Shown piece after piece: positions 41,045 through 58,474 of a DNA stretch of 64,000 nt (within the stretch, counting starts at the first letter, position 1; every line of letters begins with the position of its first letter). The notes below the pieces were generated by a model that ran no database searches, was not told the DNA's origin, and saw nothing but the letters and a program-made list of their open reading frames with translations. Origin of the DNA: Nitrospira sp. (lineage in GTDB: Bacteria > Nitrospirota > Nitrospiria > Nitrospirales > Nitrospiraceae); the NCBI GenBank assembly GCA_047150005.1, contig AP038806.1, forward strand, positions 3,424,001 through 3,488,000. Reading direction: 5' to 3'. The position numbers and the translations under genes were made by a program.

Positions 41045-41362
41045 CACGCCCGCTGGGGAGATGGACAGCGCCTGCTTGCGCAGTTCATTCGCCACGCGGG
41101 CTTGTCCCCACGCGGGTTGCTCAATAGCGATCTGCACGATGGCCTGTTCCACCTCGGGTGCCACCCGATTCTTGAGGAGCGGCTTCTGCCGCGAAATCTC
41201 TTGAAGCGCGGCCTCGCCGCCGGTCTCGTAGAGTTCCTTGAATCGATAGAAACTATCGCGGCTATACCCCATCAGCTGGCAGGCTTTGGAGACATTGCCG
41301 AGCTGCTTCGCCAGTTCCAGCACGCCGACTTTCGTCTTAATGATCTTTTGTTCCGTCGTCAT
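41045..41362 (-). pseudogene. IS481 transposase, 5' fragment
   Basis: [31 protein letters not shown]. Confidence 0.88.
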
Positions 41363-42704: not shown

Positions 42705-43008
42705 ATGCCCGATAGTCGCGGGAGTCGATAGGACCCGTATCCAACGGCAGTGGTGATCTGTTCAATAGATACGTGATCAAGCGGCTGTATTGTGTGTACC
42801 AACGGCAGGCGTTCCGATACGCCGCTTCAACAGCCGGATCCGACTTCCAGGGTGAAACATCAAGTTGGTCGTTGACGAGAATCTCGAGCCACAGGGTTTT
42901 GCGGCCTCGCGCGGTCTTCACGGCCTCAGTAATTGAGTCGGTACCCAAGTAAGCCGGTAGCAATCGAAGCGGCTGTTCGGCTGATCCTGACTGAGCCACT
43001 TGTTTCAT
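42667..43008 (-). CDS. Hypothetical protein, probable partner of the nucleotidyltransferase
   Basis: Overlapping two-gene arrangement. Confidence 0.6.
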   Translation of the reverse strand: MKQVAQSGSAEQPLRLLPAYLGTDSITEAVKTARGRKTLWLEILVNDQLDVSPWKSDPAVEAAYRNACRWYTQYSRLITYLLNRSPLPLDTGPIDSRDYRAFAEALTFVCAHR

Positions 43009-43247
43009 GACGCGAGTGTATCACAGCGTTCAATCAGGCAGGAAGAGCGAAGCGCCTACACGAACGAGAAGGGGGACAGCCACCGACTGGAAGGAAGGCC
43101 GCGCTGCCAGTGATGGTGACAGCGCGGCCTTAGTGGCGCAGAGGCGACCGGCGGACTCTGGAAGGGTCAGGACCAGAACCAGCCAGGACGGCGGCCGTCT
43201 CGCGACGGTCGAACACCCGATGGTCGGCTCCGCGCCGGAAGCTTACA

Positions 43248-43365
43248 AGAGTTCTGAGTTTTAAGTGCTGAGTGTCGGTCATGATGTAGAGGATATGTAT
43301 CCTGTTCCAGAAGGGGACCACACTCCGCCCACTCAGGACTCAACACTGAGGACTCAGGACTCCGT
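43248..43365. repeat. Degenerate heptamer repeats (actcagg / tgagtgc) in inverted arrangement
   Basis: gagttctgagttttaagtgctgagt ... actcaggactcaacactgaggactcaggactc. Confidence 0.5.
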
Positions 43366-43368
43366 CCA

Positions 43369-43455
43369 TCAGTCCTGCCAGATCTTGGTAATCACAATGT
43401 AGATGAGGACGGCCATCAGTGTATTGCTGAGGATTAGGATCACTGCGAAGTCCAT
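43369..43455 (-). CDS. 28-aa TM peptide, copy 5 (MDFAVILILSNTLMAVLIYIVITKIWQD)
   Basis: AAGGAG RBS; same length and MD..N..MA..YIV..IWQ pattern. Confidence 0.72.
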   Translation of the reverse strand: MDFAVILILSNTLMAVLIYIVITKIWQD

Positions 43456-43858
43456 GATGCTCTCCTTCTCGTCCTATGGTCCGACGATGGATTGTGCGCG
43501 TGACCCTTGCCCGCGATACAAAGCAATACGCATGCCATCGGATCTCGGATATGTCGGTTCATCCATACACAACGTGATTGGCCGCAATTTTAGAGGCGAT
43601 TCGCATTTCTCTCGTCGAGGGCTGTCACGACGGAGTGAATCAATACGCAACACAACTGAATCTGTTCGTCCTGTAACGGCATCACATTTGATCCAGGAGG
43701 TGTCAATCAAGAATCAAGAATTCCGATTGAGGAATTTCTGCCGAGGCTGCGCGGGAACGTGCTGAATGCTGAGCCGGAACTCAGCACAATGGGAGAGGAC
43801 AGGCTGCATCTTCTTCCGACCAGAGATGATGAGGAGGTCGGCGAGACGTCGGCGTCAT

Positions 43859-46081
43859 TTATCTGATTGTCTCCTGTGTCGAATAGAAGGGAAGGGTGAA
43901 GTAGAATGAAGTGCCTCGACCAACCGTGCTGTCCACCCAGATGCAGCCGCCGTGCAACTCGACCAGACTTTTGGCGATGGCCAAACCCAACCCGGCTCCT
44001 CTGGCTTCCGCTGATGTGGTTGTTCCCCTGAAGAATTTCTCGAAGACTTTCGGCAGCTCGGCAGGCGGGATGCCGCAGCCGGTATCGGACACGCAAATCT
44101 GGAGAAAGTCGGTGTTATCGTGGACCTGTGCCTGCACGGAGATCCGTCCCCCGGGCGGGGTGAACTTGATCGCGTTGCCGATGAGATTCGTCAGAATCTG
44201 CGTAAGCTTGTCCCGATCTGCATGAACAGCCGGCAGAGCCGCAAGGGAGTGCAAGTCGATGGTCACGGATTTACCGGCCGCGAGCGACTGCAATCCTTCA
44301 ATCAGCTCGTTCATCCATTCGACGATCGGAATCGGTTCCTGTCTCAGCTCGACTCGACCGGCTTCAATGCGGGACAGATCGAGCAGATCCACGATCATTC
44401 GCGTCAGACGGTCGATGTTGAATTGGATGCGGCGAAGATACTGCGATTGTTTGTCGTTCACGGCGCCGGTCACACCGTCGAGCATGTTTTCAACATAGGT
44501 CCGGATCGACGTCATGGGCGTGCGCAGCTCGTGCGACACCATGGACACGAACGAGGATTTCAGCTGATTCAACTCTTGTAACTGCTTGTTCGCCGCTTCG
44601 AGTTGGACCGTCCTCTCGCAGACTTTCTGCTCAAGCCCCGTATTCAGTTCTTCGATCTCCCGGTACGCCGCGACATTGTCCAACGCGATGGCCAGTTGAT
44701 TGGCAAAGGTGACCATGAGAGCCAAGTCATCTTGAGTCAGACTATGCGCCTTACTCCGGTCTACAGTTATCGAGCCCAAGATCCAATTCTTGACCTTTAA
44801 TGGGACAGAGAGAAACGACTCGGTGCCTGTTTGTTCCACGAGTTTCCAAGAGAGAGGATGAAGTTGTTCACGAATCTTGGTCACGTCACTGACAAGAATG
44901 GGCTGACCCCGCAAGAGGACCATTCCCTCGATGCTGGATGGGTCGGCCACCGGCACTTCAAGTTGCCGAGCGAACGCGGCGATCTCAGGCACGACTCCGA
45001 GGAGGCGGGCACTGTGGCTGATCTGGCGAAGAGGGTCGTAAAAGCTGATCATGACTCGATCGTAAGACAGTTTGTGGATGAGTGTTTCTTGAGCGCAATG
45101 AAGTAACGTTTCCTTGTCCCTGGTCGAGGTGAAGGCCAATCCCGCATCATAGAGTGTGGTCAAATGATCGACACGCCGCTGAAGATCCGAAGCGAGCTGC
45201 TGTTGCTGAACATAGGCCTTTTGCAGTTCGTCGTGCCAGGCATCGAGCGATCGTGCCTGCTCCTCGATAATGTGTTCGCGTTGTGCGATCTGTTGAACGG
45301 ACCCCGGCCGGTTCAACCATGTGCTCACTCGCCACAAACGCCGCGCCGGTGTGCTTGCTTGCCAGGCCACTTCCCATTCGCAATATTCGTCGCCTTCCGC
45401 GACACAACTACGATCGGTCACCGTTGCGGGCGGCAGTTGGTGGAAGATTTCAGGGACTCCGACGAAATAGCCCTTCACGGCGGTACACCACAGACGAGCG
45501 CACGAACGACGATACAGGCCGAAATGACGATACGTGCGTTCGCTGAACGTCAACCGCATGATGGCCCACCGGTCCGACATCGTGACGGCATCCACAAAAA
45601 AAGAATTTCTTGAGTATCGTTGAGCGATATAGACGGACATCTTGTAGATTTGTTGAACCGAGAACCGCCGCAGCAGTATCTGGATGATAGGTGAAATGGC
45701 CTTCTTTCTGGCCATGTTGAATTGAAGATCCGGATCGCCGGAAATGTCGGAGCAGATCTGAGTAAAGAAGGCGGAGAATTCGGTGGAGTAGCTGTTCCAC
45801 GGATTCTTCAAGATCGCTTCGGTAATGCGAAATGCCGGATCTGGAATCCGTTCATTCAGCAGGCGGACGAGCTCTTGAAGTGCACGCGCTCCGGAAGCGA
45901 CACCCTCTTTCTTGGAGACATACTCCTCCAGCTCTTCGACGCAGGCCTTGACGACGACTCCACTGAGATCGCGGATCCTTGTTCCGTCAGGTTCGGTCCC
46001 GAAGGGCTGAAATTCCATCATGCCCTTCTCGGTAATGGAATGATCTTTCGGGAGCAGCTCGGTCACGGCCTCGGTCTCCAA
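43859..46081 (-). CDS. Cytoplasmic sensor histidine kinase (V4R-like, GAF, HisKA, HATPase_c)
   Basis: SCVAEGDEYCEWEV, SFLSVPL, VSHELRTPM, NLIGNAIKF, DTGCG, GAGLGL; start uncertain. Confidence 0.92.
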   Translation of the reverse strand: METEAVTELLPKDHSITEKGMMEFQPFGTEPDGTRIRDLSGVVVKACVEELEEYVSKKEGVASGARALQELVRLLNERIPDPAFRITEAILKNPWNSYSTEFSAFFTQICSDISGDPDLQFNMARKKAISPIIQILLRRFSVQQIYKMSVYIAQRYSRNSFFVDAVTMSDRWAIMRLTFSERTYRHFGLYRRSCARLWCTAVKGYFVGVPEIFHQLPPATVTDRSCVAEGDEYCEWEVAWQASTPARRLWRVSTWLNRPGSVQQIAQREHIIEEQARSLDAWHDELQKAYVQQQQLASDLQRRVDHLTTLYDAGLAFTSTRDKETLLHCAQETLIHKLSYDRVMISFYDPLRQISHSARLLGVVPEIAAFARQLEVPVADPSSIEGMVLLRGQPILVSDVTKIREQLHPLSWKLVEQTGTESFLSVPLKVKNWILGSITVDRSKAHSLTQDDLALMVTFANQLAIALDNVAAYREIEELNTGLEQKVCERTVQLEAANKQLQELNQLKSSFVSMVSHELRTPMTSIRTYVENMLDGVTGAVNDKQSQYLRRIQFNIDRLTRMIVDLLDLSRIEAGRVELRQEPIPIVEWMNELIEGLQSLAAGKSVTIDLHSLAALPAVHADRDKLTQILTNLIGNAIKFTPPGGRISVQAQVHDNTDFLQICVSDTGCGIPPAELPKVFEKFFRGTTTSAEARGAGLGLAIAKSLVELHGGCIWVDSTVGRGTSFYFTLPFYSTQETIR

Positions 46082-46123
46082 AGGCGCAGGTGAGAAAAAC
46101 CCTTCCGACGCTGTGGCATGTTG

Positions 46124-47683
46124 TTACAGCGTCTTCAAATACTCCATCAGTGCCCGTTTGTCCTGATCGGGCAGGTTGGTGCCGTAGACATGGCCTCCAT
46201 TGCCGTTTCCCGGTAGCCTGGTATCGTACTTGAAAGATCCGCTGCAGTCATCCGCACCGGGGTCCCACTGAAATCCGACATGGTCCCAGTCATACAGGTT
46301 GTTTCCCCGACAAAATTCGACGGGCCGTTTGGATGGATCCTGGAGGAGATGCCACAGGGTTGGAACCGACCCATTATGGAGGTACGGAGCCCGCAACCAG
46401 ATACCGGTCAACAACAGGTTCGCGTAGCCGTTCGTCTTCCAGTAGTTTTCGAGCCTCCAGGCGGCCAGATGATGGACCTCGTTCAGCTTGTCGCTGAGCG
46501 CCTCGCTAAACGCATCCAAACGGGCCTGGTCCGTCCCAATGTCCTTGATGCCCACAATTCCGCTCGTTTGAGCGCCGTCTCTCCCGTGACATTTATGACA
46601 GTGGGTCGTGAAGAGCGCCAGGCCCTTCGCCACGAGCTTTTCGGCAAGAAGGGGATCGGTTTTCGGGCCTGGCACCATACTGTGATAGCTCTCGATGGCA
46701 TAGTCATCCGCCTCAAACCATGTCGCAATGCGGGTGACTGCCCGAAGGTCGAGCGTCGCGGGAGTGGCCCCGGCGCCAAGGGCGGCCGTGATGTTGCGCT
46801 CCTGCGGGCTCCGGTTATTGCCGTCCCAGTGCAATGCTCCCTGTGGCAGTTTTTCCCTCCAGAGTGCCGGAAAATCAGCGATTCCCGATAACGCGCCCGG
46901 ATCCATCTCAAGGGTCGGTGCGCCGAACGCCGGCAATTTCTCAAAGATCTGTAAAGAGTCCTGGAGCTTTTCAACCTTGTAATAGGCCCACGTATCGACC
47001 CGGCCCGGTCCGAACGGAGTCGGTCTGCGGTCGAGGAAGCCGAACTTGTGCTTCATGCTTTTCGCGCCGTCCTGAAAGGCCGGAATCAGCAGATAGCGGT
47101 GGATGAACTTCTCCCAATATCCCAGCCGGCCCTTCTGCTCGATGTGTTTCAGGACATTCTCGGTCGTAAAATCGGGATCATCCGCCGCGGCGAAGAGAAA
47201 ACGGAAAAACGCTTCGGCATCCACCGTGTTTGCCGGCATGCCCAAGATGATGCGGGTGGGACCGTCAGGCGTCGCGCGTACAGTCGATACATGACAGAAC
47301 GCGCAATTGATTCCGATGAACTCACCCGCGCCGAACCGCCAGCGCTTTGAGAAGCCGATCGGACGATCGACGCGGTCTTTCGGGTCCATCGTCAGCCCGA
47401 AGGCTTCGTAGGTGAGGGATTGGCATTGCGGGAGATGCGGGAGGTGCTGGGGAAACATTTCCGGCAGGATCTGCCAGATTCTGTAGGGAATGCCTCGTCT
47501 CAAGTTGTCCGACCCGATGGAACCGTACTTGAAGTGCATGGCGGTGTCGTCGTAGGAGTCCGCACATCCATCCAGCACCAACTTGTTGAACAGGTAGACC
47601 AGAACCGCCAGGAGTCCCAGCACGAGGAGGATTCTGCCGCCGGGTCCTCGTGACCGCTTCTGCTTCACCGCGTCTGTTCCCAT
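46124..47683 (-). CDS. Membrane-anchored di-heme c-type cytochrome (RoxA / peroxidase-like)
   Basis: CAFCH, CHKCH, GIWLRAPYLHNGSVPTL, GNGNGGH; N-terminal TM helix. Confidence 0.85.
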   Translation of the reverse strand: MGTDAVKQKRSRGPGGRILLVLGLLAVLVYLFNKLVLDGCADSYDDTAMHFKYGSIGSDNLRRGIPYRIWQILPEMFPQHLPHLPQCQSLTYEAFGLTMDPKDRVDRPIGFSKRWRFGAGEFIGINCAFCHVSTVRATPDGPTRIILGMPANTVDAEAFFRFLFAAADDPDFTTENVLKHIEQKGRLGYWEKFIHRYLLIPAFQDGAKSMKHKFGFLDRRPTPFGPGRVDTWAYYKVEKLQDSLQIFEKLPAFGAPTLEMDPGALSGIADFPALWREKLPQGALHWDGNNRSPQERNITAALGAGATPATLDLRAVTRIATWFEADDYAIESYHSMVPGPKTDPLLAEKLVAKGLALFTTHCHKCHGRDGAQTSGIVGIKDIGTDQARLDAFSEALSDKLNEVHHLAAWRLENYWKTNGYANLLLTGIWLRAPYLHNGSVPTLWHLLQDPSKRPVEFCRGNNLYDWDHVGFQWDPGADDCSGSFKYDTRLPGNGNGGHVYGTNLPDQDKRALMEYLKTL

Positions 47684-47734
47684 GCTGGCCTCCCTCTCGA
47701 TGTGCCGGTGACACCGGCACATCGGATAACCGCC

Positions 47735-50700
47735 TCATGCGTTGATGTTCGCCTCCAGCATATCGGGGTAGATCCTCCACACTTCCCAAGGATCCTTTTC
47801 CATGGTTTGTTGGAGGTTCTGTAACTCACGGCGAAACTGAGCGAAGGCAGCGGCTCCGCGGTTGTCGAGCGCGAGATACGAAAAGTCATCCATCAACGCG
47901 CGTCTGGTTACATTGAGGTTGAAATTCGCATTGACCAACCGTTGATAGACATCGAGCGGCTCGCGTCGCCCGTTCGTGTAGACTCGAACCGGTTGGCGGT
48001 GGGTCCAGAGCTGATAGTTCCAGAGAGAGGTCCCCACACTTTCATGCTGAACGGTCACCAGATAGATGAAGCGGGCAATAAGGCGGGCCACGGCGGCCAA
48101 CGTGAGAGCATCGTGATCTACCCCTACCGCATGGTGAACCCCCGCAGGGCATGGAACGAGATCATTCAAGGCCTTCACCCAATTGACCATGTCGTGGTCA
48201 TCTCGAATGCTGAGGTGAGGTGGATAATGGGCGTCGAGATAGCGCTGAACGTGCTGATGAATCACGTTAAAGAGCGCTTCGAAATTCTGTTGACTGGTAG
48301 CGATCCTGGCAGTCTTCAGGCCCTCGAGGTATTGCCGTACCCCGCGTCTCTTCGCATCCTCCTCCGGATCATTCACAAGAAAGTCGAAGCGGTTATAACT
48401 CTCCGTAAACAGCCGGCACATGCCCTCCTGCGTAAAACTAAAAATCGTTTCAAAGTCCCCATCCTCAACCATCTGCACCAATGTCACCATATAGTTGCTT
48501 TGCAGCGTTCCATAGACGTGGGGCCACAGTAACCGGCAGACCGGGTGGTCGGAAGGCAGGCAGTTTCTGGTGGCGATGGCGAGCGGTTCAGCGCTCGCAA
48601 GGTGCACCCAGTTGAAATGACGGACGAGCGAGAGATGGGTCGTGGCCGCGCAGAGCGCCAGCTTCTTCGCGAGGTCCCAATTGTCAAACCAGGGTCGCGA
48701 AGAGCGAAGAGTTCTTTCCGTGATGTTTTCGATTTCTGTGGCCTCGAGTCGGCCGGGCTGGCGGCGACTGCTGCGGAAGAACACTCTCACCCCTAGACGG
48801 TACAGCCCTTGGTGATACAGGTTCTCCGGAAGCGCGAGATCGCGAAAGTCCCATTGGTACTCTCGAAGCCCCGGCCTGTGTTCGGCGGCGGGGACTCGCT
48901 CGGTATAGCACGCGTAGGGTCCTTTGATCGCGAGCGACCCGAGGTCGGGGCTGCCTTCATATTCCGGAGGCAGATCAGGAGGATCAAAGGCTCTTCGCTG
49001 CAGAAAGGAATAGGCGGTCCGGAATGCCTCTGCCGGATTCGACGACACCGCAGGTAACGGGTTATCGTCCTGCATGGGTGAAAAAATTGAGTACAGTCGG
49101 ACCTGTATGTCGGAGAAGAAGGCCTTTTTCCGTTCTCGTTCGTCGGCCGGAATGTTGCCCGACACCCTGATGTTCGTAATCGGGATCGTCGGGAATCGTT
49201 CGTTGAACGGCACAACGGAAATATCGTCAAGCCGCCACGCCGCCTTGGATTGCCTCAGGCGGCGGTCGAGTCGGTCTGTGAGACATTTCCAGAAATGTTC
49301 AAGGCGCCTTCCGTGCAGGTGTGCGTTTGTCGCGCGGGCTTCGGCCCAGAATTTGAGCCAGACCACCTGTTTCCACCACCATCGTCGGCGAGGGGGAGGA
49401 AGATTGACCGGGCGGTTACCCGCGAATTTGAACCAGCCCACGAAGCGCCAGAATCGCCCCCGGAGGCTCCACGTTACCTCTGCGGGACGGACCATCCAGA
49501 CCGAGCCGATGAAGAGGGCCGAGAGGAGGGCCCCCCACCATGCGGGAGGGCTCGTCAACGCCAGCCAGACGAAGGAATGAAAGTCCTCTTCACGGGCCTT
49601 ATCCAGCAGAAACTTTCCGACACCTAGGGCGAAGCCCACGAGCGCGCCTCGCAGCCCCCACACAACCATCCATGTCCGGTCGCGGACCAGCACCCACGTG
49701 ACGCTGAAGCCCAGGACTGTCCCGAGTACGGCTCCAGCGCTTGCGGTGGACGAGGCCAAGGCCTCTGGAAGGTGCCATTGATGGTGGAAGATCAGATGGA
49801 GCAGCCCTCCGAGGAGCCAACCGCCGGCCGCGGCGACCGCCACCCATCCCATCATCAACAGGCTCAGTCCTGCGGCAGCGCCGATCGCGGCTCCCGCAGC
49901 GACATGAAAGCTCATGACATCGAGTGTCGCGAGAGCCGCGGTGAGGAATGACGCAGAACCACCGGCCCATTCCAGGATGCCCCATACAAGTCCCACGGTC
50001 GCAAGCGTTCCCAATGCGGCGACAAGACTATCGCGTCTTCTGCTCGGTCCCGTTCGCACGAGGGCGTCGCGCAACGCCGTGACCGCGATCACCACGGCGA
50101 GAGATGCGAAGAGCATTAATGCCGTCGAAAGGACCTGCCACAGGTCTTCGACCAGGCCGACGATCACTCCGATGACCGTGCCGATGATCGCTCCGAACAG
50201 TGTCCCAAACAGCAGCCCGTATAATGTCCGCGAGATGAAGCGGCGTATGCCGCCCTCGGCAAATATCCCCCGCAACGGTTTCCGCCCCGCATAGATGACG
50301 GCAATGGCGGCCCCGCAGAAGGCCCCGATCAGCGCCTCCCGTTCGCCCAGTCCATGAAAGAGGATTGTGAGGTCTTTGAGGCCCGAGAAAGACACCTCCT
50401 CGTCCCAGAGGTACCAGGCCCCACCGAGTATCCAGCCGACCAAGGTGCCGGTTCTGACTCGCCATGGACTCTGTTCTCGAATCAAACCGGCGGCGGCCCC
50501 ACACAAGGCTCCGATCAGTGCGGTCCTGGTCAGCAACGCGTGACCGAGAGTCACTGCGACGTCCCAGAGTCCCGACAAGAACAGTCCGTGATTCCACACA
50601 TGGTAGCGCGCACCCATGACCCACCCGATCGTCGCCCCTATACCGGCGGCAGTCTGCATCTGCTCGCGTAACGTGAGGACACGCGTCGCGAGAAAGCTGG

Positions 50701-53011
50701 TTCCGTAGAGGATCGCCAAGGTCGCCCCTCCGAAGATCGCGCCGATTACGGCCCCGTATGCGGCCGTCTCGGTGCCGAGCGACGGCAAGAATTGACTGAA
50801 CGTGAAGTGTGGCTGAGAGGCGTGGACGCCGGCTCCGATCAGCCACCCGATGAACGCGCCTCCGAACATCGGCATCTGGAACATCGACACGCGCCGCATC
50901 TCGGGCCGCGGATCGGCGGCGGCGGGGTTGGGATCGAACGGCGCGGGAGACGGGCGCTCCGTCCGCTGCCACGGGGTAAACGCGTTCCTGATATCGTCGA
51001 GCGCCGGCGCAAGATCCGGATGGTGACGAAGAAGCACGCTCTTGAAGGTGTTGTGCTCGATCCAATCCAGTCCGATCTGGGTGTAGACATCCGCGTTGAA
51101 ATCCGTGGTAATGAACCGATCGCTCTTGAGCCGACGGGGGGCCATCAACACGAATATCCGAAAGGCTGTGTCGCTGAATCCAAATCCCTTCGGGACTACT
51201 TCCGCATGGAGTCCGACCATCAGGTCGAGATCCTCCTTATCGGGATACGACTTCTTGAGCTGCCTGGCCCAGGCTTTCCGTTCCTTGATCTGGCGATTGG
51301 AGAGTCCGCTGAACCACGTAATGAGCGGGACTCCGACGAGCTGATTGTACGAGACGCAAGGAGCCATCATGAGCATCCGGCGGAAGTTGTTGTATCGGGG
51401 AACGGCGCGTTCGCGGTCGCGCATGATATCAATCGTCCCCAGATCGAGCGGCTCGCCCTGCGGAAAGGTGTGGTCTTCGTCTTTCATCCTCCTAAAGTGC
51501 TGCAATGCACGCGGGAAGTTATTCAGAGTGACCGCGCCGGGATGGGCGACACCGAACGAATACAGGAGATTGTTCACGCCGGCTCGTTCCACGAAATCTC
51601 GCGCATGGTCCCCCTGCAGGTCGTTAAAACTGCATCCCACGGCCAGTTCATCCGTTTGCAGGTCGTAGACGCGATACTCGTCGGGGATCAACGGGTGCAT
51701 CCGATACACGGAGACGAACTCCTCCGTCATATAGAAAGGGGACGCATGATGATCTTGCTCAGACGCCGGAATGCCGCTCACCTCTTCTTGCAGATCGCGT
51801 AAGACACGTAAGCGTCCGATGATTTTCGTGAATCGTTGCGTGAGGATGCCCCACCAGTTGGCCCGCATGCCTTGGTACAGCGTGGGATGGCCCAAAATGG
51901 CCGGCGTCCACTCCACGGTGTGAATCTTGGCGATCAAGGCCGCATTGATCAGGCGCGCCGTCTGAAACAGACGCTCTTCCGGCCAATGAGGGTATCCCTC
52001 TTTGAGACGGTCGCAGATGGCGTTGTGTTCCAGCGCAAAGAGCGTATGGAGCAGGTTCAGCCCGGCCCACCAGTTGTCGTTAAATCCGGTGAGATCGACC
52101 CCGGCGCGCGCGGGATCGGCGGGCAGTCGCCCCGCTACGGTGAAGAGTTTCCCGCTACCGTCGTTCTGCCGCAGTTCGCTCTGCTTTTGCTGACTGCTTC
52201 CATACAGCTGCGACGCGTCCCACCAGTGCGTTTCGGTGTTGCGGTACACGGGAAGATCGGCCAGCCCTTCAAACCGTTTCCCGGGACCGAAGTCAGGGCT
52301 CTGGCGGTCAATCGTGTCATCCGGCAACGTCGCGCGAATCTGCATGGTGCACTCGCCATCATTTCTGCCTGGCCAGTCATCCTGTGGATCCAATTCAACG
52401 GGAGGTAGTTCATTCCCCTGCTCCGGCGGCGGCTGCTGCCCCGGCGGCAGGGGAGGACGCCTGCGGTGATTGAACCAATCGTGAACCTGAAACTGAATCC
52501 AGGCAGCCGCAAGGAGGTTCAGCGAGGATGCGGCCCTGAAACGATCGCGCGTCAACAATGTCCGGCTGATGGTACGGGGATTCGGCGACAGGAGATGGGA
52601 ACGGTTGCCGGTGGCTTGCTCCCGGAACAGCTCGCTCAATCGCTTCAGCGGAAAATTCCTGGCAAAGCGGGTTTCGGCGCTGCCCATGCGCGGATCTTGG
52701 AGATCGTTGAACGTGCCGTCTGCAGTCCGGGCCGTCCGATACAGAGGGTTCCAGCGCTCTGTGCGAGGATCGGAAGGAGGAGGTTGGGTCGGCAGCAAGG
52801 ACGTATCGTAGAGATTGCGCCTGCGCATGATGAAGCGGTACATGGCAAGATTCCAAATGCCGATGTGTCGCCAGAGGTGATGCCAGGAAATGAGCAGGTT
52901 GAGTAGGAGGAAGAATGAAGCCAGAACCCAGAACAGCATGGCGGCTGCAAGGCCGAATCCTCCGAAAAATATCTTGCGCAGCAGGTCCCAGAGGAAAAAT
53001 GGTCTGGTCAT
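47735..53011 (-). CDS. Fusion of alpha-dioxygenase-like heme domain, multi-TM Gly-rich region and lipoxygenase domain
   Basis: WIQFQVHDW, KIHTVEWT, EEFVSVYRMH, DRERAVPRYN.FRR, RRLKSDRF; LOX motifs RHFNWVHLASAEP, HPVCRLLWPH, QHESVG, C-terminal NINA. Confidence 0.88.
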   Translation of the reverse strand: MTRPFFLWDLLRKIFFGGFGLAAAMLFWVLASFFLLLNLLISWHHLWRHIGIWNLAMYRFIMRRRNLYDTSLLPTQPPPSDPRTERWNPLYRTARTADGTFNDLQDPRMGSAETRFARNFPLKRLSELFREQATGNRSHLLSPNPRTISRTLLTRDRFRAASSLNLLAAAWIQFQVHDWFNHRRRPPLPPGQQPPPEQGNELPPVELDPQDDWPGRNDGECTMQIRATLPDDTIDRQSPDFGPGKRFEGLADLPVYRNTETHWWDASQLYGSSQQKQSELRQNDGSGKLFTVAGRLPADPARAGVDLTGFNDNWWAGLNLLHTLFALEHNAICDRLKEGYPHWPEERLFQTARLINAALIAKIHTVEWTPAILGHPTLYQGMRANWWGILTQRFTKIIGRLRVLRDLQEEVSGIPASEQDHHASPFYMTEEFVSVYRMHPLIPDEYRVYDLQTDELAVGCSFNDLQGDHARDFVERAGVNNLLYSFGVAHPGAVTLNNFPRALQHFRRMKDEDHTFPQGEPLDLGTIDIMRDRERAVPRYNNFRRMLMMAPCVSYNQLVGVPLITWFSGLSNRQIKERKAWARQLKKSYPDKEDLDLMVGLHAEVVPKGFGFSDTAFRIFVLMAPRRLKSDRFITTDFNADVYTQIGLDWIEHNTFKSVLLRHHPDLAPALDDIRNAFTPWQRTERPSPAPFDPNPAAADPRPEMRRVSMFQMPMFGGAFIGWLIGAGVHASQPHFTFSQFLPSLGTETAAYGAVIGAIFGGATLAILYGTSFLATRVLTLREQMQTAAGIGATIGWVMGARYHVWNHGLFLSGLWDVAVTLGHALLTRTALIGALCGAAAGLIREQSPWRVRTGTLVGWILGGAWYLWDEEVSFSGLKDLTILFHGLGEREALIGAFCGAAIAVIYAGRKPLRGIFAEGGIRRFISRTLYGLLFGTLFGAIIGTVIGVIVGLVEDLWQVLSTALMLFASLAVVIAVTALRDALVRTGPSRRRDSLVAALGTLATVGLVWGILEWAGGSASFLTAALATLDVMSFHVAAGAAIGAAAGLSLLMMGWVAVAAAGGWLLGGLLHLIFHHQWHLPEALASSTASAGAVLGTVLGFSVTWVLVRDRTWMVVWGLRGALVGFALGVGKFLLDKAREEDFHSFVWLALTSPPAWWGALLSALFIGSVWMVRPAEVTWSLRGRFWRFVGWFKFAGNRPVNLPPPRRRWWWKQVVWLKFWAEARATNAHLHGRRLEHFWKCLTDRLDRRLRQSKAAWRLDDISVVPFNERFPTIPITNIRVSGNIPADERERKKAFFSDIQVRLYSIFSPMQDDNPLPAVSSNPAEAFRTAYSFLQRRAFDPPDLPPEYEGSPDLGSLAIKGPYACYTERVPAAEHRPGLREYQWDFRDLALPENLYHQGLYRLGVRVFFRSSRRQPGRLEATEIENITERTLRSSRPWFDNWDLAKKLALCAATTHLSLVRHFNWVHLASAEPLAIATRNCLPSDHPVCRLLWPHVYGTLQSNYMVTLVQMVEDGDFETIFSFTQEGMCRLFTESYNRFDFLVNDPEEDAKRRGVRQYLEGLKTARIATSQQNFEALFNVIHQHVQRYLDAHYPPHLSIRDDHDMVNWVKALNDLVPCPAGVHHAVGVDHDALTLAAVARLIARFIYLVTVQHESVGTSLWNYQLWTHRQPVRVYTNGRREPLDVYQRLVNANFNLNVTRRALMDDFSYLALDNRGAAAFAQFRRELQNLQQTMEKDPWEVWRIYPDMLEANINA

Positions 53012-53056
53012 GCACGCCTCGGGATGACGGGAGTCGTGCTCCGGCAGCAATCTGTG

Positions 53057-55537
53057 TTAACGAGGCCAACAGGTTTCAACATATTGGAATAATGTCTGCG
53101 CGGCGTTCGGTGAACAGGCCTCAAGCGTGGCTTCCAATTGCTCGTCCATTTCTCGGGCGGACTCCTGGGAGAGTGTCCAGCCGAGTGGAAGGTTGGCCGA
53201 GGCGGCTCGGAGCCTGAACCGGATGAATCTTGCCTTTGGCCCGACCCGCTCATGCTGCGTCTGGCGCTCCACGTGCAGGGCTGTGTGGCGGCCACGCGCC
53301 TGTTGCGATCTATACATCGTGATGAAGGGCGTCACGACCTCGTCCAGATAGGTCCGACCCGGCTGCATCACATCCACCACGGTATCGACACGATCAAGCC
53401 GGAGTGTGTAGTACCGATTGGTCTTGAGCCGGTCCCTCACGGATTTCACGGCGATGAGCGTCGTTTCACTCGGAGACATCGAGGGGGTGGGCGGACAACT
53501 CCTGTGAACATCATGCAGCCGGTGAGGGCCTTCTTCCTGAAGCTCGACGCGAATGCATTCCGGAAAGATGGGAGGCACGCGTGTGTCGAGCGGGCCGATA
53601 TATCGGACGCCCACGGTGACCAGTTCAGGCTCATTGCTGATGTGTAGCACAATGGGCATGATGCCTTTGCCGCCGATAGGATCTGAACTCCAGCGATCGA
53701 TCTTCGGTCTGACCTCGCGATACACCTCTTCCAAGGAGGTCATCCCGGAATTCTCGAAATAGCCGCCGTCAACGAGATGAAGTCGCTTGTTCACCGTCCC
53801 GGCCGGACTGACAAACGAGAAACGGGCGCTGTTGTTGACTGCGGTGCTGAGTCGTACGGTCCGCGGATCGGGTGCGGCACGAAGGCCGACGTTACACTCC
53901 GGCTTGTTCAACGCCCTCGTGAGATCAATGACGTCATCGAATATGCCGGTCGCTCGTCCTGTCGAGGTCTCAAGACAGTCATCGTTACGCGGAGAACTGT
54001 CTACCTGAAGGCTGCTTGTGAGAACTCGAATGCCCTGCTCGACCGAGGTCGTATTCAGGATCAGGCCCGGCACATCGGTTTTCCTTTTGCCGAGCCAGAG
54101 GTCTTCGAACGGCTGTTCAAATCGGTTCGATGCGTGCCTTGTGACTTCGTTCCACTGCTGTTCCCAACCGAGCTCGATGCTTCGCCCACGGTCCCAATAC
54201 GGGACCGGCACGAACAGAAAACGTTGCAGGAGATCCGGATAGAGTAACGTACCGAACGTGGAAGCAAGATAATCCTGCCGCAGCATCGTTCGTGCGCATT
54301 CTAAGAACTTCGCTGGAAGGCCGCAGTCGCTCCGGCTGCCTTCGTCGGCAACAAGTGCGGTAAATATCGCAGCGCCCAAGCTTCCCCCCGATACTCCGCT
54401 GATCACGAACACATGTGATCCAAAATCCGGTCGGTCCTGCTCGATTCGAGAGAGCACGGATGCTGTCCAGTACGCCGCTCGAATTCCGCCTCCCTCCGCG
54501 GCAACAAAGAACACCGGGATAGGCCCCGGAATGGTCTTGTCGTCACTCAGGCGGCGCTGCATCCACGCGTCGAAGTGGTCCGCCACGGCCAGTCTGACCG
54601 GTTGCGCCCCGTCGGAAGGGCGGATAGTGCGTATGACGTGATTATCGTTATAGGGGCTGACCACCAACACGTAGAAAAAGAGGACACTCAGGATTGGGAT
54701 TCGGTGCCAAAGGCTCCAATAGATCAGCATCGTGCCGGGTGGAATCCAAGAGGCTGCAGCCAGCAACACGATGAATGCAGGTCCGAGCGCAGGGGCCAAG
54801 CGCAGATTCATCCAGGTGGTTTGGAAGACGATCAAGGGGATCAGAAACAACAGGACGAATGACCAGAGAAGGGCCCTGAATGTGGGAGCGGGCAGATCAT
54901 CCCGGTTTCTGTAGAAATGACCTGCTCGTGGATCTTTGATTCGGGGAATGTGCTTCGGGAGCAGTCGGTTGGCCGACTGAAATCTTCTTCTGAGGCGAGT
55001 AGCCCACACGTGACGCTTCGACACGACAAGCCCGAAGATTGCTGCGCAGATCAGATAGAACCCTCCATTGCCGATGACGAGACTGTCAGCCGTTCTCCCC
55101 TCAAGGGACCACAGAAACCCGACCGCAACCGTCAGGATGGCGGTCACACCAAGGGCACGGGGCAGCACACGGTGGTACCAAAGAATCCAGTCACGCCTTT
55201 GGGGGGCCGCATCGGCGGGGGGCCAGTGTGGAAACTGGAAAGAAACGATGACGCGGGACCAATACCACGACGCCCAAGCCCACGTGAATACACTTAGCAG
55301 AAACCAAGCATTTTGAGTCGCCCATCCGCTCTGGAGAGTTTGCAACCGAATCAGGAGTTCCTGGCCTTGCGCACTCCAGTTCAAGAGCACACCCGCCAAG
55401 ACAATGGTGAGGACCGAGAACCGGCAGAGTTTGAGCACCTGCCAGAGATCGAGGAGGGGCTCAAGGAACCGTGCGATGACGGCGGCGACGCCGTCCAAGA
55501 AGCTTCTGCAGCTCGTTTGCGTGCTCTCAGGACTCAA
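53057..55537 (-). CDS. Membrane-bound patatin-like phospholipase
   Basis: N-terminal TM helices; GGGIRA, GVSGGS, LVDGGYFEN. Confidence 0.88.
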   Translation of the reverse strand: MSPESTQTSCRSFLDGVAAVIARFLEPLLDLWQVLKLCRFSVLTIVLAGVLLNWSAQGQELLIRLQTLQSGWATQNAWFLLSVFTWAWASWYWSRVIVSFQFPHWPPADAAPQRRDWILWYHRVLPRALGVTAILTVAVGFLWSLEGRTADSLVIGNGGFYLICAAIFGLVVSKRHVWATRLRRRFQSANRLLPKHIPRIKDPRAGHFYRNRDDLPAPTFRALLWSFVLLFLIPLIVFQTTWMNLRLAPALGPAFIVLLAAASWIPPGTMLIYWSLWHRIPILSVLFFYVLVVSPYNDNHVIRTIRPSDGAQPVRLAVADHFDAWMQRRLSDDKTIPGPIPVFFVAAEGGGIRAAYWTASVLSRIEQDRPDFGSHVFVISGVSGGSLGAAIFTALVADEGSRSDCGLPAKFLECARTMLRQDYLASTFGTLLYPDLLQRFLFVPVPYWDRGRSIELGWEQQWNEVTRHASNRFEQPFEDLWLGKRKTDVPGLILNTTSVEQGIRVLTSSLQVDSSPRNDDCLETSTGRATGIFDDVIDLTRALNKPECNVGLRAAPDPRTVRLSTAVNNSARFSFVSPAGTVNKRLHLVDGGYFENSGMTSLEEVYREVRPKIDRWSSDPIGGKGIMPIVLHISNEPELVTVGVRYIGPLDTRVPPIFPECIRVELQEEGPHRLHDVHRSCPPTPSMSPSETTLIAVKSVRDRLKTNRYYTLRLDRVDTVVDVMQPGRTYLDEVVTPFITMYRSQQARGRHTALHVERQTQHERVGPKARFIRFRLRAASANLPLGWTLSQESAREMDEQLEATLEACSPNAAQTLFQYVETCWPR

Positions 55538-55598
55538 CGGTCATGACTCCCAATCCCGCCGCACACTACCGATTCCCGTGAGAGGCAACACGATCGGA

Positions 55599-57020
55599 TT
55601 AGAAATTGAGGCGAAGGTTAATGGAACCGATGTGTAAGAGCGTCTGATAATCTCCATTGACGGTCGGATTGATATTGCCCGTGATCGTCCGGGTTTCGTA
55701 TATTTGCGCCTGATACGCCAGATCCAGTCCGATCGCCCCTCTGCCTTCCCTGCCCATCGAACCGCAGGGAATCACCCCGAGAAACGATGCGTGCTCTTTG
55801 CAAAGAAGCCCGAGACCGACCGTGATTCCGTTGAAATTCGAGTCAGGAACGGTAGGATTAAAGGTCGCGTCGGGGACCGGAGTTTGTGAGCGGATATATC
55901 CCCCACGCGCCGCCACTTCCCAATTCGGCAACCGTTCAACTTGAAGCCACCGGTATTCCGTACCGATCATGACCACTACGCTGTTTTGCCAATTTTGCGG
56001 GAAGGGGAGGGTCGCCCCATTGGACAGGTTGACATTAAAGTTACGGAAGGATTGCCACCCGACATAGTCGAGATCCAATTCGAGTTTCCATTCACGCTCG
56101 CGGTTGCGAACCGGCCAGATCCCGATGCCCGCCGAGAAGATCTGAGGCAACACCGCGGTCGCTGAGGTATTCGCCGCGGTGCCTCCATTGACGAGAAATT
56201 GGCCGTTGATGGGAAGGACGGCTTGACTTCTGTACACGAGCCCAACATTCACCAACGGCTTGCCGTCTTCGTTGCGGAACGGCGTGTACATCATGCTGAC
56301 ATTGAATCCTGCTCCCGTGCCGTTGCCGTTAACCTCTAGGGGAGTGAGAGGAGGAATCCCGGGAATGCCAGGCGGGCTATTGAATTTTTGCTCGAAATGG
56401 CCGTTTCCGAGAAAGCTCGCAAACGTATAGATGTCGGCTCCGAGCCCGAAAGACAGCTGCTCGTTCAGCTTGAAGGCAATGGTCGGTTTGATGTCCATCA
56501 GAGGCAACGCCGCGCTTGTCACGGCAGTCGAGAACGGTCCGTCATTGGGGTATCGAATCTTGAGCCCGAACGGTGAGTTCACTCCGATACCGACTACGGT
56601 GTCGCCGAGCGCCTTCAGTCCCAGGTCTTTGAGGTTGGCCGTGAGGTACAAATTGCTGGGTGGCGGCATCGCGACGCTCCCCCCAAGATCTCCGCGGACG
56701 TTAAGGCCGGTCGGACTCGTGTAGCTGACGGAACCCCCTACGAGATTGGTGCCCAGGTACACTTGAATGCCGTGAAGTTGTGTCATGCCGGCCGGATTGT
56801 AATGAATGGCCGAAGGGTCGTCGGCTTGAGCAATAAACGCGTTGGCCTGACCTTCGGCGGCGGCGCCCTGTGGCATGATGCGAAAGGCTTCGGCTTGCAC
56901 CCAGCCAGGGACAACTGCATTCCCGGCGAGAACGCAGAGCATCGTCGCACAGACCCTAGTCCCGATTCGGTGGGCCGCTCGACTCTCTGCCTTCTCGGTT
57001 CTGCTCACTCCTGGATGCAT
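55599..57020 (-). CDS. fadL: OmpP1/FadL long-chain fatty-acid outer-membrane transporter
   Basis: AQADDPSAIHYNPAGM, PFGL, PD motif, C-terminal Phe; GGAGG RBS before 57020. Confidence 0.9.
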   Translation of the reverse strand: MHPGVSRTEKAESRAAHRIGTRVCATMLCVLAGNAVVPGWVQAEAFRIMPQGAAAEGQANAFIAQADDPSAIHYNPAGMTQLHGIQVYLGTNLVGGSVSYTSPTGLNVRGDLGGSVAMPPPSNLYLTANLKDLGLKALGDTVVGIGVNSPFGLKIRYPNDGPFSTAVTSAALPLMDIKPTIAFKLNEQLSFGLGADIYTFASFLGNGHFEQKFNSPPGIPGIPPLTPLEVNGNGTGAGFNVSMMYTPFRNEDGKPLVNVGLVYRSQAVLPINGQFLVNGGTAANTSATAVLPQIFSAGIGIWPVRNREREWKLELDLDYVGWQSFRNFNVNLSNGATLPFPQNWQNSVVVMIGTEYRWLQVERLPNWEVAARGGYIRSQTPVPDATFNPTVPDSNFNGITVGLGLLCKEHASFLGVIPCGSMGREGRGAIGLDLAYQAQIYETRTITGNINPTVNGDYQTLLHIGSINLRLNF

Positions 57021-57148
57021 AACGGGCCTCCCTAGCGGGACATATTCCTGCACAGTCTGTTTCCGCCTCACGAATACTGCTGGGTTACACATTCGGCATA
57101 GGGAGCAGAATCAGCATTGGAATCATGATGCGAGGAGAGAACTCGTAG

Positions 57149-57164
57149 AGCAATCCACACGCCA
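57149..57164 (-). promoter_or_regulatory. Candidate sigma54 promoter of the fadL operon
   Basis: TGGCGT-GTGGA-TTGCT (GG-N10-GC). Confidence 0.5.
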
Positions 57165-57344
57165 TATGCCAATCAGGCTTGGGCAATTTCCTCAAACCCT
57201 TGTCCTTGATTGAATTCCAGGTGGATTGTTGCACGAGGGAATAGCCTGATCTAGGCTCGACAGAATCCTTTTAGATTCATCAAGGATCGAAATGGATGCT
57301 ATTTCGTGGTTGGGATTTGGGGGCTCTTCCTTTACACTTCCGTC

Positions 57345-57926
57345 ATGCGGTTAATACTTCCATCCTCCTGCGAACCGGCCTTGCTCGAACGGTTTCTCAA
57401 AGCCGAAGCCATGGCGCTCTGGTCCGTGCGCGCGGCGCAGGTGAGGGATGTTCCTCCCGGTGTCTTGGCGTTCCTCCGCCGGCATGAGGAAGAGGAAGCG
57501 GAGCATCTTCGCGAATTCGAGGCCAGGCTCGGGGTGATCTCACACAGGCGGGAGAAGCTCCCGCGCGTTCCCAGCCAATGGTGGGCGTTGGTCATTCACC
57601 TCTACGGCTACGAGACGCTCGGACTGGAGTTTGCGAAGCTCCTGGTGCAGGTACAGCCGGATCTGCAGTCGATCCTCGAGGATGAACTGGTTCACGTCGA
57701 ATTCTTCGAGGAGGAAGTGCGGAAGGTGTTGGCTCAAGGAGGGCGAGGTGCCGTGGAGGCCGGGAAATCCGCGCAGGCTTGGTGGCGGAGATTGCCGCCC
57801 ACCGTCGATCGGTATCTCGAAGGGGAGCAACTGGCTCCCTATCGGGCTGACCTCAAACGGTTGATTCTGGAATCGATCGAAGAGCGGTTTGCGAACGTCG
57901 GGCTATTCAATAGAGTACTGAAATAA
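57345..57926 (+). CDS. Ferritin-like di-iron protein
   Basis: AEAMA, EEAEH, YETLG, DELVH (E...ExxH twice); TACACT 6 nt upstream suggests a leaderless transcript. Confidence 0.75.
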   Translation: MRLILPSSCEPALLERFLKAEAMALWSVRAAQVRDVPPGVLAFLRRHEEEEAEHLREFEARLGVISHRREKLPRVPSQWWALVIHLYGYETLGLEFAKLLVQVQPDLQSILEDELVHVEFFEEEVRKVLAQGGRGAVEAGKSAQAWWRRLPPTVDRYLEGEQLAPYRADLKRLILESIEERFANVGLFNRVLK

Positions 57927-57937
57927 GGAGCGACGGC

Positions 57938-58474
57938 ATGCATTGCATTTTGTTTCGTCACGGCATCGCGATTGATCGGGAGGAATGGGAAGGACCGGAT
58001 GAGGATCGTCCCTTGACGGATCGAGGAGCGAAGCGGGTGGCTCAGGTGGCGGAGGGGTTCAGATGGCTCGAGCTGCAGCCGACGCATGTGATCTCCAGCC
58101 CGCTGCTGCGCGCTATCGAGACGGCGAAGATTCTCCAGGATGCCCATCGAGTCCGGTCCGCCGTGCAGATCGCCGATGAGTTGCTGCCGGATGCTTCTCC
58201 AGATCTTCTGCTGACCAGGCTGTCTGAGCTGCCGCCGGAATCCTGCGTGTTCTGCGTCGGTCATGAACCCCATCTGGGGCTGGCGGCGTCGCTGATGCTG
58301 GCCGGCAAGCCGTTGATGGGATTTCCGTTCAAGAAGGCCGGCGCCTGTCTCATTGAGATCGCGATGCCGCTCAAGTCGGGCCGGGGCATCCTGCGCTGGT
58401 GGATGGAGCCGAGCCACCTGCGCGGGCTCGGCAGAAAGAAGCGCAAAGGCGACAAACTACCGCTGAAGACTTAA
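57938..58474 (+). CDS. sixA: Phosphohistidine phosphatase SixA
   Basis: RHGIA, DRPLT, SSPLLRA.ETA, VGHEP. Confidence 0.92.
   Translation: MHCILFRHGIAIDREEWEGPDEDRPLTDRGAKRVAQVAEGFRWLELQPTHVISSPLLRAIETAKILQDAHRVRSAVQIADELLPDASPDLLLTRLSELPPESCVFCVGHEPHLGLAASLMLAGKPLMGFPFKKAGACLIEIAMPLKSGRGILRWWMEPSHLRGLGRKKRKGDKLPLKT

Follow-up and report, generated by a model that had tools for sequence, protein, structure and literature searches.

A Nitrospira gene joining an alpha-dioxygenase-type haem domain to a divergent lipoxygenase-like domain across a predicted membrane region

Which enzymes are joined in a single 5.3-kb gene of Nitrospira sp., and what might their union make? Natural fusions, such as the AOS-LOX of corals (an allene oxide synthase joined to a lipoxygenase) and the dioxygenase-P450 (DOX-P450) proteins of fungi, have repeatedly shown which oxylipin enzymes cooperate. 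The gene in question lies on the minus strand of the window, by which we mean the whole stretch of DNA that was analysed (64,000 nucleotides of contig AP038806.1, positions 3,424,001 to 3,488,000). A preliminary description, made from the letters of the window, had proposed that it fuses an alpha-dioxygenase (alpha-DOX) and a lipoxygenase (LOX) across a transmembrane (TM) domain. From its sequence, we put at about one half the probability that the gene encodes a membrane-tethered bifunctional fatty-acid oxygenase, composed of an alpha-DOX-type dioxygenase and a mini-lipoxygenase of the type whose C terminus reads NINA.

One reading frame with two oxygenase-type domains

The DOX-TM-LOX fusion gene (47735..53011, minus strand) starts with ATG and ends in a stop codon at 47735-47737. 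It is part of a frame (47735..53050) that counts 1,771 codons from an alternative TTG start at 53050 and has no internal stop over 5.3 kb; residue numbers throughout follow this TTG frame. The ATG at 53009-53011, residue 14 of the frame, is the likely translation start because a GAGG stands 5 nt 5' of it and because the homologues P0002-P0009 begin there, their own residue 1 aligning with query residue 14. Counted from this ATG the protein has 1,758 aa, in keeping with the single continuous polypeptide that had been described. A Pfam scan placed two significant domains in this one protein, An_peroxidase (PF03098) at residues 108-680 (E 5e-96) and Lipoxygenase (PF00305) at residues 1447-1687 (E 7.7e-13; score 48.2 bits, cut-off 23.6), the latter match being limited to profile positions 321-560 of 673. 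Every motif named earlier for the two domains was found where it had been placed: QVHDW (188-192), VYRMH (448-452), RRLKSDRF (639-646), HFNWVH (1478-1483), and VQHESVG (1667-1673, its final Gly standing four residues after the His).

The haem domain (residues 108-680; 51011..52729, minus strand) was delimited by Pfam and by alignment to plant alpha-DOX structures. A phmmer search of the PDB with this domain returned Arabidopsis alpha-DOX (4hhr, E 1.5e-92) and rice alpha-DOX (4kvj, E 4.7e-88), and the next family behind them was lactoperoxidase (6.4e-13), with the cyclooxygenases at about 2e-9. Distal His190 (52481-52483, minus strand, like the codons that follow) aligned to the plant distal His, and catalytic Tyr449 (51704-51706) and proximal His452 (51695-51697) aligned to the Tyr and His of the plant VYRMH motif. 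His377 (51920-51922) fell opposite residue 314 of the 4kvj chain, the native His311 once a 3-residue tag offset is allowed for, and the Arg639-Arg640 pair (51131-51136) fell in RRLKSDRF, aligned to RRLEADRF of the plant enzyme. In the alignment, His190, His377, Tyr449, His452, and Arg639/640 were invariant in 34 of 34 fusion proteins. His311 and Arg559 are reportedly key residues, going by the title of a 2008 study by Koszelak-Rosenblum. By every sequence criterion tested, the N-terminal domain belongs to the alpha-DOX (PIOX) branch of the peroxidase-cyclooxygenase superfamily, as had been predicted.

Compared with plant and cyanobacterial alpha-DOXs (4HHR, 4KVJ, CalDOX, LepDOX), the Nitrospira domain is of the same family over query residues of about 60-700, with the distal His, Tyr, proximal His, His311 equivalent, and Arg-Arg carboxylate clamp all aligned. 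It differs from them in being joined to a membrane region and a LOX-like domain, and in carrying a Pro/Gln-rich insertion of about 60 aa after the distal His. PMC8720084 describes two homologues from cyanobacteria, CalDOX and LepDOX, as active alpha-DOXs yielding fatty aldehydes. The alpha-DOX phylogeny presented there excluded sequences of >1000 aa, so that fusions escaped notice in it. Elsewhere in the source genome, outside the window, a second and partial An_peroxidase match (E 3.8e-26) lies in a 574-aa frame (G000:C1:3636533-3637108), and the LOX family has a single match in the genome.

Between the two enzymatic domains, the protein has a Gly-zipper-like hydrophobic membrane region of about 470 aa (residues ~725-1190; 49481..50878, minus strand), and a further hydrophobic helix stands near its N terminus (residues 26-57; 52880..52975, minus strand; Kyte-Doolittle peak 2.41). 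With a 19-aa Kyte-Doolittle window and a threshold of 1.5, the hydropathy windows merged to about 8 hydrophobic stretches within residues 762-1123. The region contains 24 GxxxG motifs in 466 aa and is composed of 14.8% Leu, 14.6% Ala, and 13.7% Gly, which agrees with the Gly-rich, hydrophobic middle part of the preliminary description. It also contains internal repeats of about 65 residues: the tandem units 797-862 and 863-925 gave a local alignment score of 120, against 27.3 ± 5.5 for shuffled sequences, none of 300 of which reached 120. A self-BLAST of the region gave no off-diagonal match. The region matched no Pfam family even at E ≤ 10 and had no usable match in the ESM Atlas, and an exhaustive phmmer search returned 4 matches among 1.84e9 representatives, all from the same fusion family. 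In NCBIfam, the only match was a sub-threshold one to the type III secretion system protein EscS (E 0.033). Across 21 proteins, only Gly, Ala, and Trp were invariant within the region, flanks aside, whereas the catalytic domains were dense in conserved positions. An AlphaFold2 (AF2) model of the region was all-helical, with a pLDDT of 70.1.

We read this middle part as a fast-evolving membrane anchor. A channel or transporter, passing lipid between a periplasmic cytochrome encoded next door and the cytoplasmic domains, would account for a region some 470 aa long and for partner enzymes in different compartments. It would also fit the tie between the N-terminal helix and the insert: of the full-length homologues with the insert, 20 of 20 showed an N-terminal hydrophobic peak, as against 1 of 20 among those lacking it. 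Such a role is nevertheless very improbable in a region that is so poorly conserved, finds only four relatives in an exhaustive HMMER search, varies in length, is missing in 20 of the 44 fusions and in the majority of stand-alone members, and is made of duplicated short Gly-zipper units. As for topology, we infer that both catalytic domains face the cytoplasm, because insert-less fusions are without hydrophobic N-terminal segments, because four stand-alone LOX-like open reading frames (ORFs) in relatives have only ~470-570 aa and so little membrane room, and because the stretch after the insert is markedly basic.

A fusion of this kind could in principle be an assembly artefact or a degenerate pseudogene, an explanation to which we give next to no weight. 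Besides the absence of a stop in 5.3 kb, a second complete genome of the same genus (G010) has an intact, uninterrupted fusion frame of 1,753 aa, the catalytic residues are invariant in the family, and relatives at 91%, 66%, 62%, and down to 41% identity have the same domain order. The source locus itself lies within a complete, single-contig genome of 4.07 Mb. Among the sequencing runs, X1 has a 12.3-kb contig identical to the window over 47600-53200, but as the assembly may derive from X1, this is not independent support. Run X3 comes from another study and is ~92% identical, and its contigs bridge both the TM-LOX junction (47607-50338) and the DOX-TM junction (50672-51871), so that continuity of the DNA across the junctions is seen independently.

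Database searches recovered 44 fusion clusters related to the query (P0002-P0045), at identities from 91% down to 39%; 22 have the membrane insert, 20 are insert-less, and 2 have the reversed domain order. The closest named sources are Nitrospira sp. KM1 (66%) and Nitrospira sp. Nam80 (57%), and the full fusion was found in 2 of 25 same-genus genomes. In a quick maximum-likelihood tree of 85 LOX domains, the insert-bearing forms all fell in one clade of 37 rows (SH-aLRT 92) that also takes in 13 stand-alone proteins. Most insert-less fusions formed their main clade (16 rows) elsewhere, and the well-supported branches need at least two changes of that label. Four further proteins (P0129, P0164, P0126, P0199) have one to several N-terminal Gly-rich hydrophobic segments followed by a LOX domain; these TM-LOX rows lie very near full fusions in the tree and may be partial gene calls. 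The alpha-DOX-type domain was also observed in other company: among P0046-P0121, from other bacteria, it is fused to catalase-related (PF00199), old yellow enzyme (OYE; PF00724), or GMC oxidoreductase (PF00732/PF05199) domains, and in P0057 and P0058 it is joined to N-terminal membrane regions. Taken together, these proteins make up a family of fusions of two enzymes.

A divergent clade of LOX-like domains

The C-terminal part (residues 1191-1771; 47738..49480, minus strand) is a LOX-like catalytic domain without PLAT. In a PDB sequence search it matched 11R-LOX (3vf1, E 1.3e-14) and the Cyanothece mini-LOX (5med, E 5e-11). Alignment to CspLOX2 and 11R-LOX matched WDLAK (WxxAK), HxxxxH, and the third His, and set Gly1673 opposite the ligand Asn. 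The AF2 model of the domain, built with 46 sequences, had a pLDDT of 89.7 and a pTM of 0.90, and a Foldseek search with it gave 132 matches at E ≤ 0.001, the top rows listed all being LOXs (E 2e-15). VIA-align superposed it on human 12-LOX with Z 30.8 and a root mean square deviation of 3.1 over 459 aligned residues, so that the LOX fold expected from the motifs was also obtained in the model. In 49 of 50 VIA-align rows, the aligned range stops at the last residue of the model, which is partnered by chain residues 663, 673, 685, 839, 569, or 1066, the final numbered ones; these we take to be the C-terminal ligand residues of LOXs.

At the metal-ligand positions of the domain are His1478 (48617-48619) and His1483 (48602-48604) of HxxxxH, and His1669 (48044-48046) at the position of the third His. 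Gly1673 (48032-48034) occupies the Asn/His ligand position, and the protein ends in Ala1771 (47738-47740), the last residue of NINA (all minus strand). Residue counts over the clade were made on 48 members, namely 45 fusion-type proteins and 3 stand-alone ORFs of Nitrospira relatives. The three ligand His were kept in all 48, the residue directly after the third His was Glu in 43 and Asp in 5, and the His+4 residue was Gly in 43 and Asp in 5, never the Asn or His of LOXs. The last residue was Ala in 42 members, Ser in 1, and Tyr in 5. The two positions covaried: all 43 sequences with Gly at His+4 end in Ala or Ser, and all 5 with Asp there end in Tyr. Such covariation is as expected if both positions meet at the metal, and it rests on a single clade, the five Asp/Tyr sequences representing one evolutionary event. 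Thus the Gly and the terminal Ala picked out by the preliminary description are present, and what had looked like an oddity of a single copy is a clade-wide signature.

Because the domain combines a LOX fold with three of the five canonical ligands and has another residue in the place of Asn/His, we file it, on the sequence alignment and the model, as a member of a divergent LOX-like clade rather than as a canonical LOX. With mini-LOXs without PLAT (Cyanothece CspLOX2, 5MED) and LOXs generally it shares the catalytic-domain fold (Z 29-31), WxxAK, HxxxxH, the third His, and the alignment of the C terminus, and like mini-LOXs it has no PLAT. It differs from them in sequence (14-19% identity), and the NINA clade differs in having Gly or Asp for the Asn/His ligand, in ending in Ala (or Tyr/Ser) and not in Ile/Val, and in the Glu/Asp that follows the third His.

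A search with the LOX-like domain gave at least 867 matches at E ≤ 0.001 among 8,000 candidates scored. Most of the 120 matches listed were stand-alone proteins of about 500 aa, and among these mostly stand-alone homologues 111 of 120 had the NINA C terminus. Named sources among the matches listed were Myxococcota, Pyrinomonadaceae, Geodermatophilus, and Nitrospirales. Within the literature searched, we found no characterized member of the NINA clade.

Gene pairs and neighbouring genes

How the two domains are arranged when they are not fused was examined in 80 metagenome loci from a LOX-profile scan, whose neighbours were called by tblastn with the window proteins (E ≤ 1e-8) as far as the flanks allowed; in this and the other neighbour counts, related genomes are not independent samples. 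A DOX homologue lay directly upstream of the LOX-like gene on the same strand in 46 loci (45 separate, 1 fused), downstream on the same strand in 3, and divergently upstream in 3. Four loci had no DOX despite at least 2 kb of upstream DNA, and in 24 the flank was too short to judge. Of the 56 informative loci, 52 thus pair the LOX-like gene with a DOX homologue, and because of this pairing the fusion is, as judged from gene order, a Rosetta-stone variant of a conserved bacterial DOX->LOX pair. Nitrospira records L016 and L023 likewise have DOX and LOX as separate adjoining genes; in the Nitrospira relatives L012 and L013, the LOX-like genes are without an adjoining DOX. Seen from the DOX side, the tie is weaker: among 80 DOX-centred genome loci a LOX-like neighbour occurred in 3, and a RoxA-like cytochrome in 10, these from other phyla. 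A RoxA-like gene directly followed the LOX-like gene in 12 of the 80 metagenome loci. A predicted complex of the split DOX and LOX of L016, trimmed to 1000 residues, scored 0.00 and gives no verdict.

The open-access literature searched yielded no account of DOX and LOX as a fusion or as paired genes, and what is called a "peroxidase-lipoxygenase fusion" in print is coral AOS-LOX. Automatic database labels already show the architecture, for example the JGI label "heme peroxidase/lipoxygenase" for P0027. As far as can be told, then, the architecture is visible in databases and undescribed. To this extent the preliminary description, which knew of no DOX-TM-LOX fusion, is supported; the fusion is, however, no isolated case, being one layout of a widespread DOX and LOX-like pair.

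In the window the fusion gene is the third of five minus-strand genes, in the order FadL, patatin, fusion, RoxA-like cytochrome, and kinase, separated by gaps of 61, 45, 12, and 42 nt; all five recur in G010 in this order. First in the cluster is a FadL/TodX-family outer-membrane channel (55599..57092; Pfam Toluene_X, 1.5e-33). It is followed by a membrane-anchored patatin-like phospholipase (53057..55537), with about 6 hydrophobic segments in its first 300 aa and the GVSGG serine and DGG aspartate motifs. A FadL homologue adjoins the kinase or the LOX gene in L010, L012, L013, L023, L094, and L095, and patatin recurs near DOX/peroxidase genes in L011 and L015. A promoter and terminator scan of 43000-58500 gave fewer sites than shuffled sequences and none on the minus strand between the genes, and among the runs listed no RNA run carried the locus.

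Directly after the fusion gene comes a RoxA-like dihaem cytochrome c (46124..47722, minus strand; PF21419, 2.8e-15), with CAFCH and CHKCH motifs and one N-terminal hydrophobic anchor. It scored 168.5 bits against a cut-off of 150 for the NCBIfam dihaem cytochrome c peroxidase subfamily NF040606, and had no match to the CCP/MauG Pfam family at E ≤ 0.001. Against the RoxA, RoxB, and RoxC equivalogs it reached 50.9, 50.6, and 68.8 bits, where the cut-offs are 1000, 900, and 900, and it matched RoxA in the PDB (4b2n, E 4.7e-9) in two short C-terminal stretches. It therefore shares with RoxA (4B2N) a RoxA-like cytochrome c module and two CxxCH motifs, but with 50.9 bits against a RoxA cut-off of 1000 it is no RoxA orthologue.

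RoxA-like genes were also seen beside DOX genes in more distant bacteria. Acaryochloris marina MBIC11017 (L051, NC_009925.1) has at 10079-17833 a DOX, a 320-aa ORF, an OYE, and two RoxA-like genes, the first recognized by tblastn and the second by Pfam. A metagenome-assembled genome of Dehalococcoidia (L015) has an OYE, a RoxA-like gene, a DOX, a 216-aa ORF, and patatin.

The last gene of the cluster encodes a soluble histidine kinase (43859..46081, minus strand), in which an N-terminal domain of about 300 aa is followed by GAF, HisKA, and HATPase domains, and which has no hydrophobic segment. The N-terminal domain (first ~300 codons, 45122-46081) has four invariant Cys (C194, C199, C226, C234). 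It had no Pfam match, and a PDB profile search gave only a chance ribosomal match (E 0.23). An identity with V4R was considered and rejected, the lead (E 0.1) appearing in only 1 of 7 orthologues. Among the best 120 of 167 kinase homologues, Pfam marked only the GAF, kinase, receiver, or cyclase parts. On these searches we call the N-terminal domain a putative, undescribed sensor domain. Relatives of the kinase include kinase-receiver-adenylate cyclase fusions, and in other Nitrospira relatives two hydrophobic segments follow the kinase N-domain that are missing in the source genome and G010.

The kinase follows the LOX-like gene in L011, L012, L013, L016, and L023. In each of 5 further LOX-positive genomes, 59-224 bp separate its sensor domain from the LOX-like gene. 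The length of the longest contig is the same for 11 of the first 20 fusion homologues and a kinase of this family, so that, judged by these equal lengths, the two may lie together. In G001 (L094), the kinase stands beside FadL only. In G099 (L095), a 592-aa RoxA-like cytochrome precedes the kinase and FadL is adjacent, and a two-partner secretion (TPS) pair, a TPS domain protein and a ShlB-type transporter, was observed after FadL. From this gene order, the stable core appears to be kinase and FadL, and the oxygenases look like exchangeable upstream additions. In the phylum sample, the LOX-like gene was present in 8 of 301 genomes, all of one family, or in 7 of the 49 genomes of the family without the source genome.

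Directly downstream of the kinase is a mobile-element patch (36001-41362). It comprises rve-type integrases (36001-36798 and 39081-39830) and an IS4/5 DDE transposase (38231-39001), as well as an integrase-like ORF (40193-41026) and a helix-turn-helix ORF (41009-41362) judged from their translations only. The corresponding position in G010 is taken by another An_peroxidase of 1060 aa, its second, by an unknown protein of 859 aa, and by a GMC oxidoreductase. Two ORFs that share a strand, one DUF6036 nucleotidyltransferase-like (42156-42704) and the other of 113 aa (42667-43008), overlap at the end of the latter and may form a toxin-antitoxin-like pair. On the other side of the cluster, upstream of FadL, three ORFs of about 200 aa each (57306-57926, plus; 57839-58417, minus; 58457-59092, minus) had no Pfam or NCBIfam match.

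Possible functions of the fusion

If the gene encodes a membrane-tethered bifunctional oxygenase, a fatty acid would be freed at the membrane by the patatin lipase and/or let in by FadL. In the DOX domain, the Tyr449 radical would take the C-2 hydrogen while Arg639/640 hold the carboxylate, and the product, a 2-hydroperoxy acid, would decay to an aldehyde one carbon shorter. Three His, together with the C-terminal carboxylate, would bind the LOX-like metal, the exchange of Asn/His for Gly leaving a site open, and the domain would oxygenate the unsaturated chain of the same lipid to give a doubly oxygenated or chain-shortened oxylipin or aldehyde. The Gly-zipper region and the N-terminal helix would tether the two domains to the inner membrane on its cytoplasmic side, the place where the substrate would originate. 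The RoxA-like cytochrome would then work on lipid in the periplasm, and the kinase would sense a lipid of the pathway. Channelled synthesis by the two domains, as proposed in the preliminary description, is a conjecture.

Several observations weigh against this assignment. The canonical fourth side-chain ligand, Asn or His, is absent (Gly1673), and the two reversed LOX-DOX proteins (P0034, P0037) keep NMNA internally with a linker after it, so that a free C-terminal carboxylate cannot be the ligand there. A LOX substrate needs a 1,4-pentadiene, and to our knowledge polyunsaturated acids are not known in Nitrospira lipids; the source genome has three desaturase-family ORFs, the presence of which does not show dienes. 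All other fusion partners of this DOX among the search matches are catalase-related (PF00199), OYE (PF00724), or GMC oxidoreductase domains, and members of these families typically process products rather than add O2. The confidence of the insert model (pTM 0.46) is too low to fix its topology. The cluster also spans compartments, the cytochrome c being necessarily periplasmic and the kinase having no membrane segment. Finally, the kinase is present in 4 of 5 LOX-negative genomes, and because a kinase and FadL pair occurs without LOX or DOX, the sensor may answer to FadL cargo and not to an enzyme product.

Some of these points would be met by a different chemistry, the main alternative, in which the LOX-like domain is not a second dioxygenase. 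Much as eLOX3 does, it would transform the unstable DOX 2-hydroperoxide (or another one), with the activity of an isomerase, a lyase, or a reductase-like hydroperoxidase. The fusion would then trap a short-lived intermediate. Besides the nature of the other DOX partners (catalase-related, OYE, and GMC domains) and the want of an evident source of polyunsaturated substrate in the host, the asymmetry of the pairing favours this chemistry, the LOX-like clade occurring with DOX in 52 of 56 loci and the DOX side with LOX in only 3 of 80. So does the first coordination sphere, which is changed throughout the clade, with Gly in 43 and Asp in 5 of the 48 members. The logic has precedents in systems where one domain makes a hydroperoxide and its partner transforms it, as described for DOX-P450 (PMC13049297) and for catalase-related AOS-LOX (PMC3925239, PMC5617202). 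On the other side, WxxAK, HxxxxH, the third His, and a LOX-aligned C terminus are all retained, and LOX-like genes occur without an adjoining DOX (L012, L013). Dioxygenase and isomerase LOXs are not known to be distinguished by their ligand sets, which we count against a hydroperoxide-processing role. The soybean LOX-1 mutant N694G has moreover been crystallized (1y4k, among the structure matches) and is said to be still active. On balance, we consider hydroperoxide processing a possible but doubtful account of the domain.

The known fusions to which the gene may be compared are alike in plan and different in parts. Coral and cyanobacterial catalase-related AOS-LOX (3DY5; Acaryochloris, Anabaena) also combines an N-terminal haem domain with a C-terminal LOX for consecutive oxylipin steps, but its haem domain is catalase-like and consumes the LOX product, whereas the haem domain type found in Nitrospira adds O2 itself, and AOS-LOX is without a membrane insert. 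In the fungal DOX-P450 proteins (PpoA, linoleate diol synthases, DOX-AOS), PMC13049297 describes a haem dioxygenase of the same superfamily placed N-terminal to a lipid-transforming domain. There the partner is a P450 and not a non-haem-metal LOX fold, and the fungal DOX abstracts hydrogen at C-8/C-10/C-11, not at C-2.

At the level of the cluster, the nearest comparison is with Pseudomonas aeruginosa, in which the oxylipin sensor is a LysR regulator and the oxylipin system has a FadL-type exporter. The Nitrospira cluster differs in that its cytochrome is RoxA-like (PF21419, NF040606) and its sensor a histidine kinase, and there are no DOX or LOX domains in the P. aeruginosa system. What the two have in common, as PMC4496055 and PMC6377657 describe the oleate diol synthase and oxylipin quorum sensing of P. 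aeruginosa (PA2077, PA2078), is the presence of dihaem cytochrome c enzymes together with a dedicated sensor.

With either chemistry, the cluster could serve defence or detoxification, in which exogenous unsaturated fatty acids or other hydrophobics enter by FadL, the kinase senses them, and the DOX, LOX, and RoxA-like oxygenases destroy them. A core of kinase and FadL that is kept while the upstream oxygenases vary (none in G001; RoxA-like alone in G099; LOX alone; DOX and LOX; the fusion) would suit such a role, as would the patchy, accessory-like distribution (8 of 301 genomes) and the insertion sequence elements beside the cluster. Linoleic and alpha-linolenic acids are, according to PMC9011059, plant nitrification inhibitors that hit AMO and HAO. 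Those reported targets are, however, ammonia-oxidizer enzymes, and a search of the source genome for the AMO family gave no match, a result that is limited by the lack of a positive control, the search being silent in 14 control genomes as well. The membrane patatin lipase in the operon points, moreover, to an endogenous or lipid-bound substrate. We regard a defensive role as improbable; it concerns role and not chemistry, and leaves a bifunctional oxygenase possible.

A wider proposal, which we advance tentatively and with more doubt than confidence, is that the fusion belongs to a widespread, undescribed bacterial two-enzyme oxylipin pathway, in which an alpha-DOX-type enzyme is followed by a NINA-type lipoxygenase whose metal, held by three His and a carboxylate, would have one coordination position open. 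In Nitrospira relatives this pathway would be fused, membrane-anchored, and coupled to FadL and to a dedicated cytoplasmic histidine kinase with a new four-Cys domain for sensing lipids. The DOX-LOX fusion and the adjoining genes in dozens of loci would tie two fatty-acid dioxygenase families into one pathway, the first such tie as far as our searches reach. They also mark out a clade of >800 detected LOX-like proteins with a putatively non-canonical metal site, and make testable both how a LOX acts without the Asn/His ligand and what purpose bacterial alpha-dioxygenases serve. The insert-less natural fusions and the split pairs would be easy constructs for biocatalysis. In these nitrite-oxidizer relatives, the operon context hints at signals derived from lipids or at a defence against fatty acids, in bacteria of central importance for nitrogen cycling and wastewater treatment. 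If the wider proposal is true, nitrite oxidizers would make and/or sense fatty-acid-derived signals, possibly the plant or microbial unsaturated acids that inhibit nitrification.

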